This document shows, piece by piece, positions 40,595 through 49,638 of a stretch of 49,809 bases of DNA. Position numbers and translations under genes: made by a program. The number at the start of each line of letters is the position of its first letter. Position 1 is the first letter of the stretch. The stretch is from a virus. Taxonomy: Duplodnaviria; Heunggongvirae; Uroviricota; Caudoviricetes. Location of the stretch: IMG/VR virus record IMGVR_UViG_2663762603_000001; one strand, 5' to 3'. The notes beneath the pieces were generated by a model. It saw only the letters and a program-made list of their open reading frames with translations, had not been told where the DNA came from and did no database searches.

Positions 40595-43500
40595 ATGGGT
40601 AAAGGAAGCAGTAAGGGGCATACCCCGCGCGAAGCGAAGGACAACCTGAAGTCCACGCAGCTGCTGAGTGTGATCGATGCCATCAGCGAAGGGCCGGTTG
40701 AAGGTCCGGTGGATGGATTAAAAAGCGTGCTGCTGAACAGTACGCCGGTGCTGGACAGTGAGGGGAATACCAATATATCCGGCGTCACGGTGGTGTTCCG
40801 GGCCGGTGAGCAGGAGCAGACACCGCCGGAGGGATTTGAATCCTCCGGCTCCGAGACGGTGCTGGGTACGGAAGTGAAGTACGACACGCCGATTACCCGG
40901 ACCATCACGTCGGCAAACATCGACCGTCTGCGCTTTACCTTCGGTGTGCAGGCACTGGTGGAAACCACCTCAAAGGGGGACCGGAATCCGTCGGAAGTCC
41001 GCCTGCTGGTTCAGATACAGCGTAATGGTGGCTGGGTGACGGAAAAAGACATCACCATTAAAGGCAAAACCACCTCACAGTATCTAGCATCGGTGGTGGT
41101 GGGTAACCTGCCGCCGCGCCCGTTCAATATCCGGATGCGCAGGATGACGCCGGACAGCACCACAGACCAGCTGCAGAACAAAACGCTCTGGTCGTCATAC
41201 ACCGAAATCATCGATGTGAAACAGTGCTACCCGAACACGGCACTGGTCGGCGTACAGGTGGATTCGGAGCAGTTCGGCAGCCAGCAGGTGAGCCGTAATT
41301 ATCATCTGCGCGGGCGTATTCTGCAGGTGCCGTCGAACTATAACCCGCAGACTCGGCAATACAGCGGTATCTGGGACGGAACGTTTAAGCCAGCATACAG
41401 CAATAACATGGCCTGGTGTCTGTGGGATATGCTGACCCATCCACGCTACGGCATGGGGAAACGTCTTGGTGCGGCGGATGTGGACAAATGGGCGCTGTAT
41501 GTCATCGGCCAGTACTGCGACCAGTCAGTGCCGGATGGCTTTGGTGGCACGGAGCCGCGCATCACCTGTAACGCTTACCTGACCACACAGCGTAAGGCGT
41601 GGGATGTGCTCAGTGATTTCTGTTCGGCGATGCGCTGTATGCCGGTATGGAACGGGCAGACGCTGACGTTCGTGCAGGACCGACCGTCGGATAAGGTGTG
41701 GACCTATAACCGCAGTAATGTGGTGATGCCGGATGATGGCGCGCCGTTCCGCTACAGCTTCAGCGCCCTGAAGGACCGCCATAATGCCGTTGAGGTGAAC
41801 TGGATTGACCCGGATAACGGCTGGGAGACGGCGACAGAGCTTGTTGAAGATACGCAGGCCATTGCCCGTTACGGTCGTAACGTCACGAAGATGGATGCCT
41901 TTGGCTGTACCAGCCGGGGGCAGGCACACCGCGCCGGGCTGTGGCTGATTAAAACGGAGCTGCTGGAAACGCAGACCGTGGACTTCAGCGTGGGTGCAGA
42001 AGGGCTTCGCCATGTACCGGGCGATGTCATTGAAATCTGTGATGATGACTATGCCGGTATCAGCATCGGCGGGCGCGTGCTGGCGGTGAACAGCCAGACG
42101 CGGACACTGACGCTCGACCGTGAAATCACGCTGCCATCCTCCGGCACCACGCTGATAAGCCTGGTTGACGGACAGGGGAATCCGGTCAGCGTGGAGGTCC
42201 AGTCCGTCACCGACGGCGTGAAGGTGAAAGTGAGCCGTGTTCCTGACGGCGTTGCCGAATACAGCGTGTGGGGGCTGAAGCTGCCGACGCTGCGCCAGCG
42301 CCTGTTCCGCTGCGTGAGTATCCGTGAGAACGATGGCGGCACGTATGCCATCACCGCCGTGCAGCATGTACCGGAAAAAGAAGCCATCGTGGATAACGGG
42401 GCGCACTTTGACGGCGACCAGAGCGGCACGGTGAATGGTGTCACGCCGCCAGCGGTGCAGCACCTGACTGCCGAAGTCACCGCAGACAGCGGGGAGTATC
42501 AGGTACTGGCCCGCTGGGACACGCCGAAGGTGGTGAAGGGCGTGAGCTTCCTGCTTCGCCTGACCGTGACAGCGGACGACGGCAGTGAGCGGCTGGTCAG
42601 CACGGCCCGGACGACGGAAACCACTTACCGCTTCACACAACTGGCTCTGGGGAACTACAGGCTGACAGTCCGGGCAGTAAATGCGTGGGGGCAGCAGGGC
42701 GATCCGGCGTCGGTATCGTTCCGGATTGCCGCACCGGCAGCGCCGTCGCGGATTGAGCTGACGCCGGGCTATTTTCAGATAACCGCCACGCCGCATCTTG
42801 CCGTTTATGACCCGACGGTACAGTTTGAGTTCTGGTTTTCGGAAAAGCGGATTACCGATATCAGGAAGGTTGAAACCACAGCGCGCTATCTTGGCACGGG
42901 GCTGTACTGGATAGCCGCCAGTATCAATATCAAACCGGGCCATGATTATTATTTTTACGTTCGCAGTGTGAACACCGTTGGCAAATCGGCATTCGTGGAG
43001 GCTGTTGGTCAGCCGAGTGATGATGCATCCGGTTATCTGGATTTTTTCAAAGGCGAGATAGGGAAAACCCATCTGGCTCAGGAGCTGTGGACGCAGATTG
43101 ATAACGGTCAGCTTGCGCCTGACCTGGCTGAAATCAGGACGTCCATTAAGGATGTCAGCAATGAAATCACGCAGACCGTCAATAAGAAACTGGAAGACCA
43201 GAGTGCGGCAATTCAGCAGATACAGAAGGTTCAGGTTGATACAAATAATAATCTGAACAGCATGTGGGCTGTGAAGCTGCAACAGATGAAGGACGGACGC
43301 CTTTATATTGCGGGTATCGGTGCCGGTATTGAGAATACGCCAGCAGGAATGCAGAGTCAGGTGCTGCTGGCGGCAGACAGGATTGCGATGATTAATCCTG
43401 CGAATGGCAACACAAAGCCGATGTTTGTTGGTCAGGGCGATCAGATATTCATGAACGACGTGTTCCTGAAACGCCTGACGGCTCCCACCATTACCAGCGG

Positions 43501-44074
43501 CGGTAATCCTCCGGCATTTTCCCTGACACCGGACGGGCGGCTGACGGCGAAAAATGCCGATATTAGCGGTAACGTGAATGCGAACTCCGGGACGCTCAAC
43601 AACGTCACGATTAACGAGAACTGTCGGGTTCTGGGAAAACTGTCCGCCAACCAGATTGAAGGCGATCTCGTTAAAACAGTGGGCAAAGCTTTCCCCCGGG
43701 ACTCCCGTGCACCGGAGCGGTGGCCATCAGGGACCATTACCGTCAGGGTTTATGACGATCAGCCGTTTGACCGGCAAATTGTTATTCCGGCGGTGGCATT
43801 CAGTGGCGCTAAGCATGAGAGAGAGCATACTGATATTTACTCCTCATGCCGTCTGATAGTGCGGAAAAACGGTGCTGAAATTTATAACCGTACCGCGCTG
43901 GATAATACGCTGATTTACAGTGGCGTTATTGATATGCCTGCCGGTCACGGTCACATGACACTGGAGTTTTCGGTGTCAGCATGGCTGGTAAATAACTGGT
44001 ATCCCACAGCAAGTATCAGCGATTTGCTGGTTGTGGTGATGAAGAAAGCCACTACAGGCATCACGATTAGCTGA
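40595..44074 (+). CDS. J: host specificity / tip attachment protein J
   Basis: 1159 aa, lambda J-like; GAGGA SD. Confidence 0.9.
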
Positions 44075-44141: not shown

Positions 44142-44741
44142 ATGCGTAAATTATGTGCTGTTATTCTGTCCGCAGTAGTCTGGCTGGTTGCCGCTGGTAT
44201 GCCAGCGAGCGCAGCAGAGCATCAGTCCACACTAAGCGCCGGGTATCTTCAGACCCATACTGATATGCCAGGCAGCGATGATCTGAACGGGATTAACGTG
44301 AAATACCGTTATGAGTTTACGGACACGCTGGGGCTGGTGACGTCATTCAGTTATGCCAATGCCAAAGATGAGCAAAAAACGCATTACAGCGATACCCGCT
44401 GGCATGAAGATTCCGTGCGTAACCGCTGGTTCAGCGTGATGGCGGGGCCGTCTGTGCGCGTGAATGAATGGTTCAGCGCGTATGCGATGGCGGGTGTGAC
44501 TTACAGTCGTGTGTCGACTTTTTCCGGGGATTATCTCCGTGTAACTGACAGCAAGGGGAAAACGCACGATGTGCTGACCGGAAGTGATGACGGTCGCCAC
44601 AGCAACACGTCTCTGGCGTGGGGGGCTGGCGTGCAGTTTAACCCGACCGAATCCGTGGCCATTGATATTGCTTATGAAGGCTCCGGCAGTGGTGACTGGC
44701 GTACCAACAGTTTCATCGTTGGTGTCGGCTATAAATTCTGA
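44142..44741 (+). CDS. lom: Lom/Ail/PagC-family outer membrane beta-barrel protein
   Basis: 199 aa with signal peptide and C-terminal …VGVGYKF; position between J and stf as lambda lom. Confidence 0.85.
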   Translation: MRKLCAVILSAVVWLVAAGMPASAAEHQSTLSAGYLQTHTDMPGSDDLNGINVKYRYEFTDTLGLVTSFSYANAKDEQKTHYSDTRWHEDSVRNRWFSVMAGPSVRVNEWFSAYAMAGVTYSRVSTFSGDYLRVTDSKGKTHDVLTGSDDGRHSNTSLAWGAGVQFNPTESVAIDIAYEGSGSGDWRTNSFIVGVGYKF

Positions 44742-47800: not shown

Positions 47801-47892
47801 CACATGGACACACCATCACCGTTAACGCTGCTGGTAACGCGGAAAACACCGTCAAAAACATCGCATTTAACTATATTGTGAGGCTTGCATAA
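44806..47892 (+). CDS. stf: side tail fiber protein Stf (Ala/Ser-rich repetitive shaft, KGIVQLS repeats, His-rich HxH C-terminal tip)
   Basis: 1028 aa; long imperfect repeats of A/S/T-rich units (…AAKTSETNA…), two KKGIVQLS…ATPKAVKAA repeats, C-terminal GAHTHS motifs. Confidence 0.85.
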
Positions 47893-48476
47893 TGGCATTC
47901 AGAATGAGTGAACAAGCACGGACCATAAAAATTTATAATCTGCTGGCCGGAACTAATGAATTTATTGGTGAAGGTGACGCATATATTCCGCCTCATACAG
48001 GTCTGCCAGCAAACAGTACCGATATTGCACCACCAGATATTCCTGCTGGCTTTGTGGCTGTTTTCAACAGTGATGAGGCATCGTGGCATCTCGTTGAAGA
48101 CCATCGGGGTAAAACGGTTTATGACGTAGCGTCAGGGGACGAGTTATTTATTTCTGAACTCGGTCCGTTACCGGAAAATGTTACCTGGTTATCGCCGGAA
48201 GGGGAGTTTCAGAAGTGGAACGGCACAGCCTGGGTGAAGGATACGGAAGCAGAAAAAATGTTCCGGATCCGGGAGGCGGAAGAAACAAAAAACAACCTGA
48301 TGCAGGTAGCCAGTGAGCATATTGCGCCGCTTCAGGATGCTGCAGATCTGGAAATTGCAACGGAGGAAGAAACCTCATTGCTGGAAGCCTGGAAAAAGTA
48401 TCGGGTGTTGCTGAACCGTGTTGATACATCAACTGCACCTGATATTGAGTGGCCTACGAACCCTGTCAGGGAGTAA
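47892..48476 (+). CDS. tfa: tail fiber assembly protein Tfa
   Basis: 194 aa; conserved C-terminus …[52 protein letters not shown]. Confidence 0.85.
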
Positions 48477-48490
48477 TCATTGGGATTATG

Positions 48491-48523
48491 CCGCAGCACG
48501 TCTTAAGCAAGAACGTGCTGCGG
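48491..48523. terminator. hairpin between convergent tfa and methyltransferase genes (bidirectional terminator candidate)
   Basis: CCGCAGCACGT-cttaagcaag-AACGTGCTGCGG inverted repeat; a related hairpin recurs at about 49541-49574. Confidence 0.5.
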
Positions 48524-48530
48524 TTGGATG

Positions 48531-49199
48531 CTATTTTTTCCCTGAAGCGGAAAACATTACTACAGTACCTTGAACCTTGGTTTTAACATTCTCGAAATGC
48601 TCTGAGAGTATATGTGTTAAGCCTTCTTCGGAATCTTTTGTGTTTGAAAAGATGCCTTTCTGATTGTAAATGCGCATCAGTTTTTGACCGAAGCTATTGT
48701 GCACAACTCCATCGCCAAGAATTGTGGCTCCGTATAGAGTTCCATCGTCAGTTAAGGCCTGCGCCGCATTGCGTATTACACAGCTTTTTGTAGATATATT
48801 TCCAGGCAGGCAGTGAAGAAGGTAAAACATGGAAATGGAATCAAATTGACCATGTAACGCCGCGGGATAAGGTTCAAAAACATCATGGCTAATTTTATGT
48901 TTAATTTTTGATTCCCCAGCCCTTGTAGATGCCGCGTTCAGGCTAGCTTCGTTCAAATCCATTAAAGATATCAGACTACTCTCAGGTACGTGAGTAAGGT
49001 AAAACCCAGTTCCAACACCAATATCCAGATGGTTGTTACCTACATGTTCCAGATAGTGTGGAAGAAGGTGTTCCTTTGTAGGACATCCCCATGCAAGCCG
49101 ATTTGATACTCCCAAAACCCACCAGTCATAAAGCTTTAGGGTAAGTGGTGTGTAAATTTTAGCCCCATCATCTGTGTTTTTTTTCATTGATTTCACCAT
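48531..49199 (-). CDS. class I SAM-dependent methyltransferase (moron in tail-fiber region)
   Basis: 222-aa ORF; motif I LDIGVGTGFY; flanked by duplicated tfa 3' segments. Confidence 0.7.
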   Translation of the reverse strand: MVKSMKKNTDDGAKIYTPLTLKLYDWWVLGVSNRLAWGCPTKEHLLPHYLEHVGNNHLDIGVGTGFYLTHVPESSLISLMDLNEASLNAASTRAGESKIKHKISHDVFEPYPAALHGQFDSISMFYLLHCLPGNISTKSCVIRNAAQALTDDGTLYGATILGDGVVHNSFGQKLMRIYNQKGIFSNTKDSEEGLTHILSEHFENVKTKVQGTVVMFSASGKK

Positions 49200-49255
49200 G
49201 TTATAGTTTTATTTGTGAATTAAATCAATTATGGCGATGAATTACAAGGGGTTAA

Positions 49256-49576
49256 ATGCTGCCGCAGCATAGCGATATTGAAATAGCCTGGTATGCTTCG
49301 ATACAGCAGGAGACGAATGGCTGGAAGACCGTCACCACACAGTTCTACATCCAGGAATTCAGTGAGTATATTGCGCCACTGCAGGATGCTGTAGATCTGG
49401 AAATCGCAACGGAGGAAGAAAGATCGTTGCTGGAGGCATGGAATAAATATCGGGTATTGTTGAATCGTGTTGATACATCAACTGCACCGATATTGAGTGG
49501 CCTGCAAATCCTGTCAGGGAGTAATCATTGGGATTATGCCGCAGACACGTCGTATGCAGGAACGTGCTGCGGTTAG
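49256..49576 (+). pseudogene. second, short tfa-like gene with 1-nt deletion disrupting the conserved C-terminus
   Basis: …[41 protein letters not shown] then frame diverges (GCACCGATATT vs GCACCTGATATT in intact tfa). Confidence 0.5.
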
Positions 49577-49638
49577 TTTGTGAGCTTTCGATAGTGGTTG
49601 TTATTTTTGCCCTTATTTGTTCCGGAGGCCATGGTTCA

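Follow-up and report, generated by a model that had tools for sequence, protein, structure and literature searches.

How did a methyltransferase gene come to lie, on the opposite strand, between two 3' ends of the tail fiber assembly gene tfa, and is the frameshift in one of these ends of any consequence? We addressed these questions for the right end of the caudoviral IMG/VR record IMGVR_UViG_2663762603_000001, a stretch of 49,809 nucleotides that we refer to as the window. A first-pass annotation, made from the letters alone, had proposed that the gene was cargo captured by recombination between tfa modules. Our comparisons show that the locus is the right end of a lambda-like Escherichia coli prophage integrated at ompW, and alignment identifies the cassette of ~1.05 kb as the intact form of the tfaD-ybcY-tfaX module (b0561-b0563) of the cryptic K-12 prophage DLP12. 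We read it as a DLP12-type module that would have arisen in one old capture, that would spread and be lost by homologous recombination, and that would carry its methyltransferase as a moron. We assign this overall reading a probability of roughly 0.75.

A cassette between two tfa 3' ends and its K-12 counterpart

The final 1918 nt of the window (47892-49809) are 100% identical to at least 15 complete, independently assembled E. coli chromosomes from different laboratories. In these genomes the prophage ends ~400 nt past the window, at an ompW 3' fragment adjoining yciE-yciF-yciG-trpA. Positions 48038-49501 align with tfaD-ybcY-tfaX of NC_000913 at 96.8% identity over 1465 aligned columns with 3 gaps; the two loci are collinear, with equal gene order and strands. 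From left to right, the cassette consists of a tfa 3' end and its hairpin, the methyltransferase gene on the minus strand, an AT-rich spacer of ~150 nt with promoter-like hexamers, and a second tfa 3' end with a hairpin of its own (Table 1).

DLP12 shares both non-homologous junctions with the window, as well as the hairpin that follows tfaD, and differs from it in three respects. The ybcY gene of K-12, with 2 gaps in 669 nt, is a pseudogene, whereas the methyltransferase gene of the window is intact. K-12 TfaX is cut to 61 residues by a TGG-to-TGA stop, whereas tfaX of the window is frameshifted at a later point. Finally, the right flank in K-12 leads into a different tfa allele and then appY-ompT, whereas that of the window leads into a hairpin, a DUF4376 remnant, and ompW. 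The module is no novelty: it is named in K-12 and annotated piece by piece in RefSeq. On a 100%-identical locus (NZ_CP019005), the Prokaryotic Genome Annotation Pipeline (PGAP) lists a tail fiber assembly protein, a class I S-adenosylmethionine (SAM)-dependent methyltransferase, a tail fiber assembly pseudogene labeled "frameshifted" with its N terminus missing, and a DUF4376 pseudogene. The cassette is real but ordinary, and it fits the known mosaic and moron picture of lambdoid phages.

It is also widespread. Of 5426 complete E. coli genomes, 3844 (~70%) carry the methyltransferase gene and spacer (48531-49348) with at least 95% identity, in up to 4 copies each, and the methyltransferase is found in ~15 sequenced E. 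coli phages with at least 97.7% protein identity.

Table 1. Features at the right end of the window, with the evidence for each
Feature	Position	Strand	Evidence and remarks
stf, side tail fiber, 1028 aa	44806-47892	+	Open reading frame list; Pfam phage_tail_N, Phage_fiber_2, Collar; last structural gene before the chaperone
tfa, complete, 194 aa, lambda Tfa type	47892-48476	+	Pfam Caudo_TAP (1.3e-44, model positions 1-130/131); RefSeq WP_000885580.1
Direct repeat copy 1: last 177 nt of tfa coding DNA (conserved C-terminal domain), stop codon, hairpin	48300-48525	+	Repeat search, MAFFT, alignment
Hairpin 1, 12-bp GC-rich stem	48490-48523	either	14 nt past the tfa stop, 8 nt past the methyltransferase stop; putative two-way terminator and module boundary
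Class I SAM-dependent methyltransferase, intact ybcY homologue, 222 aa as drawn	48531-49199	-	Pfam, PHROG 2132, AlphaFold2
Promoter-like region	49200-49255	-	TTAACC-16-CATAAT (49255-49228); K-12 ybcY-type TTGATT-17-TATAAC (49228-49200)
tfaX-like chimeric open reading frame, 106 aa here owing to the frameshift	49256-49576	+	PHROG 2341, Pfam Caudo_TAP, alignment with K-12 TfaX and the ATCC 11775 allele
Spacer labeled "DinI family protein" N-terminal fragment by RefSeq	49274-49354	-	PGAP, NZ_CP019005; unconfirmed
Direct repeat copy 2: tfa 3' remnant and hairpin	49349-49574	+	Repeat search, MAFFT, alignment
1-nt deletion site (T missing)	49488-49489	+	Alignments; allele counts
Hairpin 2	49538-49572	either	34-mer CCGCAGACACGTCGTATGCAGGAACGTGCTGCGG, present unchanged in the phage lambda hairpin beyond ea47
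Remnant labeled DUF4376 (PGAP), internal stop	49621-49809, running off the window (locus L001, 5730-5999)	+	RefSeq annotation of the 100%-identical locus; translation

The first-pass annotation had noted that the tfa C terminus and a downstream hairpin occur twice in direct orientation, and the alignment bears this out. In the core global alignment (48312-48527 versus 49361-49575), 192 of 217 columns are identical (88.5%), so the two segments are related. The extent given there needed correction: each copy spans ~226 nt (~88% identity) rather than ~190 bp, and the second copy begins at 49349 rather than 49370. The copies differ at 28 diagnostic positions (~12%), and outside the repeat the 40-nt flanks are unrelated (left flank, 42% identity; right flank, 27%). 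Along the repeat, the start-to-start distance is 1049, 1048, and again 1049 nt; the differences include 1 nt that copy 2 lacks between 49488 and 49489 and 1 nt that it has gained at 49545, within the hairpin.

Both repeat copies are closed by the same GC-rich hairpin pattern, which has 0.00 expected occurrences in the shuffled window. Hairpin 1 folds with -30.7 kcal/mol (z = -4.8) on the plus strand and -25.4 kcal/mol (z = -4.4) on the minus strand. Phage lambda has ea47 immediately past tfa, encoded on the other strand, with a copy of the hairpin on either side of it, both in the same orientation (KT232076; locus L017, 6600-6634 and 8189-8223), the second of which matches hairpin 2 exactly over 34 nt. 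Together with ~25 nt downstream (49538-49596; J02459 24161-24219), hairpin 2 is 82-91% conserved in 156 lambdoid phage records, among them HK97, HK106, mEp460, and many Shiga toxin (Stx) phages; there it usually occupies a spacer without annotation where the late region ends. In a Rac-like phage the hairpin stands at the end of its record. This distribution suggests that the hairpin is a conserved late-operon end or module boundary. A 15-nt palindrome, ATGCTGCCGCAGCAT, forms the start of the tfaX-like open reading frame (ORF) at 49256-49270 and has GCCGCAGCA in common with the left hairpin arm; either chance or an additional hairpin copy, of which this would be what is left at the cassette's inner edge, may account for it.

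The repeat also matches a predicted E. coli small RNA, IS009 (Rfam RF02111, gathering score 117). The copy 1 region (48235-48433) scored 223.8 bits over the full 199-nt model, the K-12 tfaD 3' end scored 227.8 bits, and the copy 2 region (49279-49482), at 112.3 bits, fell just short of the threshold. The match in the window falls within the tfa coding sequence, with no sign of an independent RNA gene, so that IS009 most likely represents protein-coding prophage DNA that occurs repeatedly, not a gene for an RNA. A loose-threshold Rfam scan returned only IS009 and two weak, chance-level matches, and a tRNA gene scan found none.

Proposed formation, spread, and decay of the cassette

The inner junctions are identical in K-12 DLP12, PhiR26_1, 2G7b, and O157:H7: the hairpin meets the methyltransferase 3' end at ~48527/48531, and the spacer meets the second tfa end (tfa') at ~49349. 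Because these junctions are the same in all copies examined, they point to a single, old, illegitimate capture as the event that made the cassette. The outer limits of similarity vary. PhiR26_1 is collinear with the window over 47892-49480, and 2G7b, which has unrelated tail fiber genes, is collinear only over 48356-49480, so that it retains a left-hand tfa stub of ~120 nt and a right-hand tfa' stub. Over the first 12 diagnostic sites (49351-49426), K-12 tfaX has the states of copy 2; from 49435 onward the two diverge. The last part of copy 2 (sites from 49504) matches instead the tfa 3' end of a prophage that lacks the cassette (locus L014). With a left part of the tfaX-flank type and a last part of the L014 type, copy 2 is thus a recombinant in its own right.

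The first-pass annotation had called for a comparison with related prophages lacking the insert. We searched with an artificial deletion product, in which 48200-48527 was joined to 49576-49809. Twenty records match this query end to end; they lie at ompW, and in them tfa is joined directly to the copy-2 hairpin and the DUF4376 remnant, the same downstream DNA as in the window. One such empty site, EFF60, has copy-1 states at 23 diagnostic sites in a row and copy-2 states at the 5 that come next, with one switch inside the 34-nt block in which the copies are identical. This is exactly what a crossover between the two repeats would leave. PigCaeca_2 has a full-length tfa that terminates, in frame, with a 3' end of the copy-2 type. 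The breakpoints and empty sites support that part of the earlier proposal in which tfa DNA is the site of exchange; capture by this particular prophage does not hold, since the junctions are shared.

Tfa proteins have a variable N-terminal fiber-binding domain and a conserved C-terminal domain (PMC9608196). Because the C-terminal domain is conserved, tfa 3' DNA could work as a homology arm among different phages. In the mechanism that we propose, the cassette would have been built once, via two illegitimate joints, and its flanks, which encode the conserved Tfa C-terminal domain, would offer homology on both sides in almost any lambdoid phage with a tfa gene. Spread between prophages would then proceed by homologous recombination, with the left crossover in tfa or stf and the right one in tfa', and loss would occur by recombination between the two repeats of the cassette itself.

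We next consider the second tfa-like ORF, which by alignment is a chimeric remnant and a tfaX homologue. Its residues 1-79 match PHROG 2341 (88 aa, without a function label), and Pfam Caudo_TAP covers only model positions 75-122 of 131, in the last ~48 in-frame codons. The N-terminal fiber-binding part of a full-length Tfa domain is missing, and the first ~30 residues are read from spacer DNA and have no similarity to Tfa. The DinI label that RefSeq gives to the spacer could not be confirmed: BLASTP against full-length Citrobacter DinI gave no alignment, PHROGs returned nothing, and the label is absent from the ATCC 11775 annotation.

The 1-nt deletion that had been noted in this second copy was recovered in our alignments, in which copy 2 reads GCACC-GATATT against GCACCTGATATT. 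The exact 56-mer across the deletion occurs in 32 records, whereas the intact version is found in roughly 900; ~925 further records match this segment over its full length, and most of them carry the 57-nt version (one gap). Because of these counts we regard the deletion as real, inherited, and rare. In ATCC 11775, whose locus is 99.8% identical, the extra T is present and the remnant ends like a normal Tfa. Judged by these alleles, the deletion is a rare derived state, and ATCC 11775 and most genomes keep the frame. It had been proposed that the frameshift destroys the conserved terminal peptide of the ORF. The shift of frame stands, but only ~48 codons match the Tfa model, and therefore the frameshift falls in an ORF that was already truncated. 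The tfaX-like ORF has been inactivated in different ways, by a stop codon in K-12, by the frameshift in the window, and by deletion in Nissle, a pattern that fits a decaying remnant. The 1-nt deletion would then be a late, rare mutation in a dead remnant, without functional consequence.

Further rearrangements were seen in two other strains. In Nissle 1917 (NZ_CP148105; locus L015, 2372-5354), all that is left of the tRNA-Arg DLP12 site are pieces of an integrase gene and of tfa, an intact methyltransferase gene, and ompT; similarity to the window ends at 49285, so the right-hand tfa' copy is absent. In a prophage of O157:H7 strain 9234 (NZ_CP017446; locus L016, 790-3003), tfa is separated from the methyltransferase gene by a manganese catalase gene together with paralogues of yciE, yciF, and yciG. 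The yciE, yciF, and yciG genes normally flank the ompW attachment site, and the paralogues look like cargo picked up by imprecise excision.

The methyltransferase and its putative role as a moron

The first-pass annotation had placed a class I methyltransferase of 222 aa, with the motif LDIGVGTG, between the repeat copies, and our data agree. The ORF is uninterrupted over its 222 codons, LDIGVGTG corresponds to motif I, and four Pfam models exceed their curated cut-offs: Methyltransf_12 (37.5 bits, cut-off 30), Methyltransf_23 (28.7, cut-off 27), Methyltransf_25 (27.7, cut-off 27), and Methyltransf_11. The AlphaFold2 model (predicted local distance difference test score 90.6) is a single domain with a Rossmann-like alpha/beta fold and a seven-strand sheet. 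All invariant residues of a 25-member family alignment (55-89% identity) are kept in the protein. The ORF as drawn begins at ATG 49199, whereas its homologues and PHROG 2132 begin at the fifth codon, ATG 49187. Residues 5-222 align to positions 1-218 of the 218 in the PHROG 2132 profile, Met-5 is invariant in the 25 sequences, and a Shine-Dalgarno-like GGTGA lies 6 nt upstream of ATG 49187. Because the family alignment and the profile begin at residue 5 and GGTGA stands upstream, the real start is probably Met-5 at 49187, which gives a protein of 218 aa.

Homology and structure searches confirmed the class I fold and returned generic matches only. Among the structural matches, JHAMT (7ec0), bacterial PmtA (8ys9), RebM (3bus), and MM_2633 (3dtn) share the Rossmann-like seven-strand fold, the GxGxG of motif I, and a single domain of ~210 aa, but they are only 11-21% identical to the methyltransferase of the window. 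A sequence search of the PDB gave marginal matches to JHAMT and UbiG. No NCBIfam model came near its cut-off (best 18.3 bits versus 180), with CpaM, RquA, and PmtA far below threshold. Because of the low identity and the lack of a near-cut-off NCBIfam model, no substrate can be transferred from known enzymes. PADLOC gave no match for the methyltransferase, PHROG 2132 carries no function label, and the source names of distant relatives are generic. In sequence and predicted structure, the protein resembles small-molecule or lipid enzymes rather than DNA methyltransferases, and we infer that its substrate may be a small molecule or a lipid.

The family is broad, with 199 clusters at 50% identity (E below 1e-30). 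In Salmonella and Enterobacter the homologues (56-64% identity) are stand-alone chromosomal genes in unrelated neighborhoods, and no operon common to the two genera offers a clue to function. In Citrobacter, homologues adjoin full-length DinI-family genes (C. freundii, 89% identity, locus L018, 5001-5996; C. braakii, 67%, locus L022, 5001-9147). The C. braakii homologue has sodC and a gene for a SopA-like effector nearby, and its surroundings resemble the cargo region of a Gifsy-like prophage. The family is thus carried as cargo by prophages of other species as well.

Several traits lead us to regard the gene as a putative moron that would be expressed in the lysogen, namely its orientation opposite to the neighboring genes, its promoter-like hexamers, the stable hairpin directly past its stop codon, and its base composition. 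The GC content is 0.37-0.44 across 48500-49300, unlike that of neighboring genes, with 0.49-0.56 in stf. Its absence from the 20 empty sites described above agrees with this view. The K-12-type -10 hexamer, TATAAC (49205-49200), abuts the first ATG. In K-12, the ybcY/tfaX spacer is listed as a site bound by the RpoD holoenzyme in systematic evolution of ligands by exponential enrichment (SELEX), together with H-NS (PMC3946193). A LexA box upstream of the gene, considered because of the idea of a DinI promoter, was rejected by eye, as the CTG...CAG spacing does not fit. As we picture it, the methyltransferase gene would be a moron with its own sigma-70 promoter, expressed in the lysogen; the hairpin would insulate it from late-operon transcription, and the enzyme would act on a small molecule or lipid rather than on DNA. 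A literature search found nothing on a methyltransferase moron beside lambdoid tail fiber assembly genes, and the papers that mention ybcY or tfaX hold promoter lists and gene-context remarks only.

Lambdoid morons and the lambda b region offer a parallel, in that an extra, low-GC gene, putatively transcribed on its own, lies between conserved modules and is absent from close relatives. They differ from the window in that only the 35-nt hairpins are repeated, no tfa coding DNA is duplicated, and the cargo gene is another one (ea47). The concept of the lambdoid moron reportedly goes back to Juhala et al. and Hendrix et al., both in 2000.

Weighing of alternatives, prophage setting, and significance

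A number of observations weigh against parts of this reading. The flanks of the empty-site prophages diverge from the window by 4-13%, which makes them relatives and not recent derivatives, and the direction of each event is therefore one that we infer. The EFF60 pattern could also be an independent mosaic of tfa alleles. For expression, a promoter consensus scan returned no more sites than the shuffled expectation, and the evidence for the predicted promoter consists of consensus matching and the in vitro K-12 SELEX listing. Neither of the hairpins, as putative terminators, has an adjacent U-run. For selection, the E. coli copies of the gene differ at 1-4 codons, too few for an estimate of the ratio of non-synonymous to synonymous substitution rates; the differences are mostly non-synonymous (3 versus 0-1) and too few to show purifying selection, and the K-12 copy is a pseudogene. 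Finally, the structural matches that bear on the substrate are of the generic kind given above.

Other histories of the locus fare considerably worse. If the two tfa ends had arisen recently and locally, with the tfa 3' end first duplicated in tandem and a foreign gene then inserted between its two copies, a direct repeat around foreign, low-GC DNA would be the expected trace, as is found here. However, the copies differ at ~12% of sites, the junctions and copy-specific differences are common to K-12 DLP12, 2G7b, PhiR26_1, and O157:H7, copy 2 in turn combines two tfa alleles, and the cassette, present in 3844 of the 5426 genomes, is not confined to one recent clade. We therefore consider a recent local event very unlikely. 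A little less credible still is that the ends are relics of a Gin/Cin/Pin-type invertible tail fiber segment flipped by a serine invertase. Duplicated tfa genes are common in prophages, and the related Rac-like PhiR42_1 has a PinQ/PinR-type recombinase directly after the same tfa, but the repeat copies in the window are direct rather than inverted, and 48476-49809 contains no invertase or recombinase ORF, no alternative stf 3' end, and, in our repeat search, no inverted repeat of useful length.

The remaining alternatives concern single parts of the cassette. That the tfaX-like ORF encodes a functional small protein, a stand-alone Tfa C-terminal domain, and that the frameshift is a real loss or a switch, is improbable, though it is the least improbable of these alternatives: the ORF family is catalogued as PHROG 2341, most records with this copy-2 sequence have the in-frame allele, and the conserved C-terminal helical region is retained. 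Against it stand the independent inactivations in K-12, the window, and Nissle, the 30 N-terminal residues drawn from spacer DNA, and a promoter supported by a 9-of-12 consensus match only. As for an error of sequencing or assembly at the deletion site, the errors met most often in long-read assemblies are indels of a single base, but the site (CACC|GATA) lies outside any homopolymer run, the exact 56-mer recurs in 32 records, the 1918-nt identity extends to at least 15 complete genomes from different laboratories, and RefSeq itself marks the ORF as "frameshifted" in NZ_CP019005; an artifact is the least probable explanation of all. Finally, phage-borne orphan DNA methyltransferases are common and the SAM-binding fold is of the Rossmann type, both of which would suit an enzyme that shields the DNA of phage or host against restriction or leaves an epigenetic mark on it. 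The 222 residues contain no PP dipeptide, and hence not the catalytic motif IV, (D/N/S)PP(Y/F/W), of amino-DNA methyltransferases, and the single domain is too small for a target recognition domain, so that we give this idea scarcely more credit than the invertible segment.

The last 9 kb of the window form the right arm of the prophage, with J (40595-44074) and lom (44142-44741) ahead of stf and tfa. Lambda-like prophages at ompW (PPompW) are known to carry variable cargo at their very end (PMC8112680). The exchangeable effector loci of enterohemorrhagic and enteropathogenic E. coli PPompW prophages (PMC8112680) resemble the window in prophage type, in the ompW site next to yciE-trpA, and in having cargo downstream of the tail fiber genes at the right end. 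They differ in carrying type III secretion effector genes, whereas the window carries a cytoplasmic methyltransferase and tail fiber chaperone remnants.

Two further observations concern the neighboring fiber genes. Between 45180 and 46070, stf contains a long Ala/Ser/Thr-rich stretch in which degenerate repeats recur at multiples of 21 nt. The length of stf varies among otherwise near-identical prophages, with 1028 aa here and 991 aa (2976 nt) and 1035 aa (3108 nt) in two close relatives. The DUF4376 remnant is a third remnant related to tail fiber chaperones, located between hairpin 2 and the ompW fragment, and therefore this end of the prophage holds nested scars of several fiber-module exchanges.

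A wider hypothesis is that Tfa C-terminal DNA and the hairpin form a general docking site at the end of the lambdoid late operon, where leftward-transcribed cargo is swapped, and that the ybcY-type methyltransferase, in ~70% of E. coli, confers a selectable lysogen trait through methylation of a small molecule or membrane lipid. The hairpin pair around ea47 in lambda and the 156 lambdoid records with the hairpin speak for such a site. We put the hypothesis forward as speculation that is considerably more likely to be wrong than right.

As a structure, the cassette adds little, since the module is named, annotated, and part of the textbook picture of mosaic lambdoid phages. To our knowledge, the intact and highly conserved methyltransferase found in most E. 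coli genomes, including those of pathogens and of Nissle 1917, has never been characterized, and K-12, the usual model strain, holds a dead copy. For phage biology, the tfa 3' end and its hairpin provide a concrete example of a conserved protein domain serving as a portable DNA homology arm for phage cargo.

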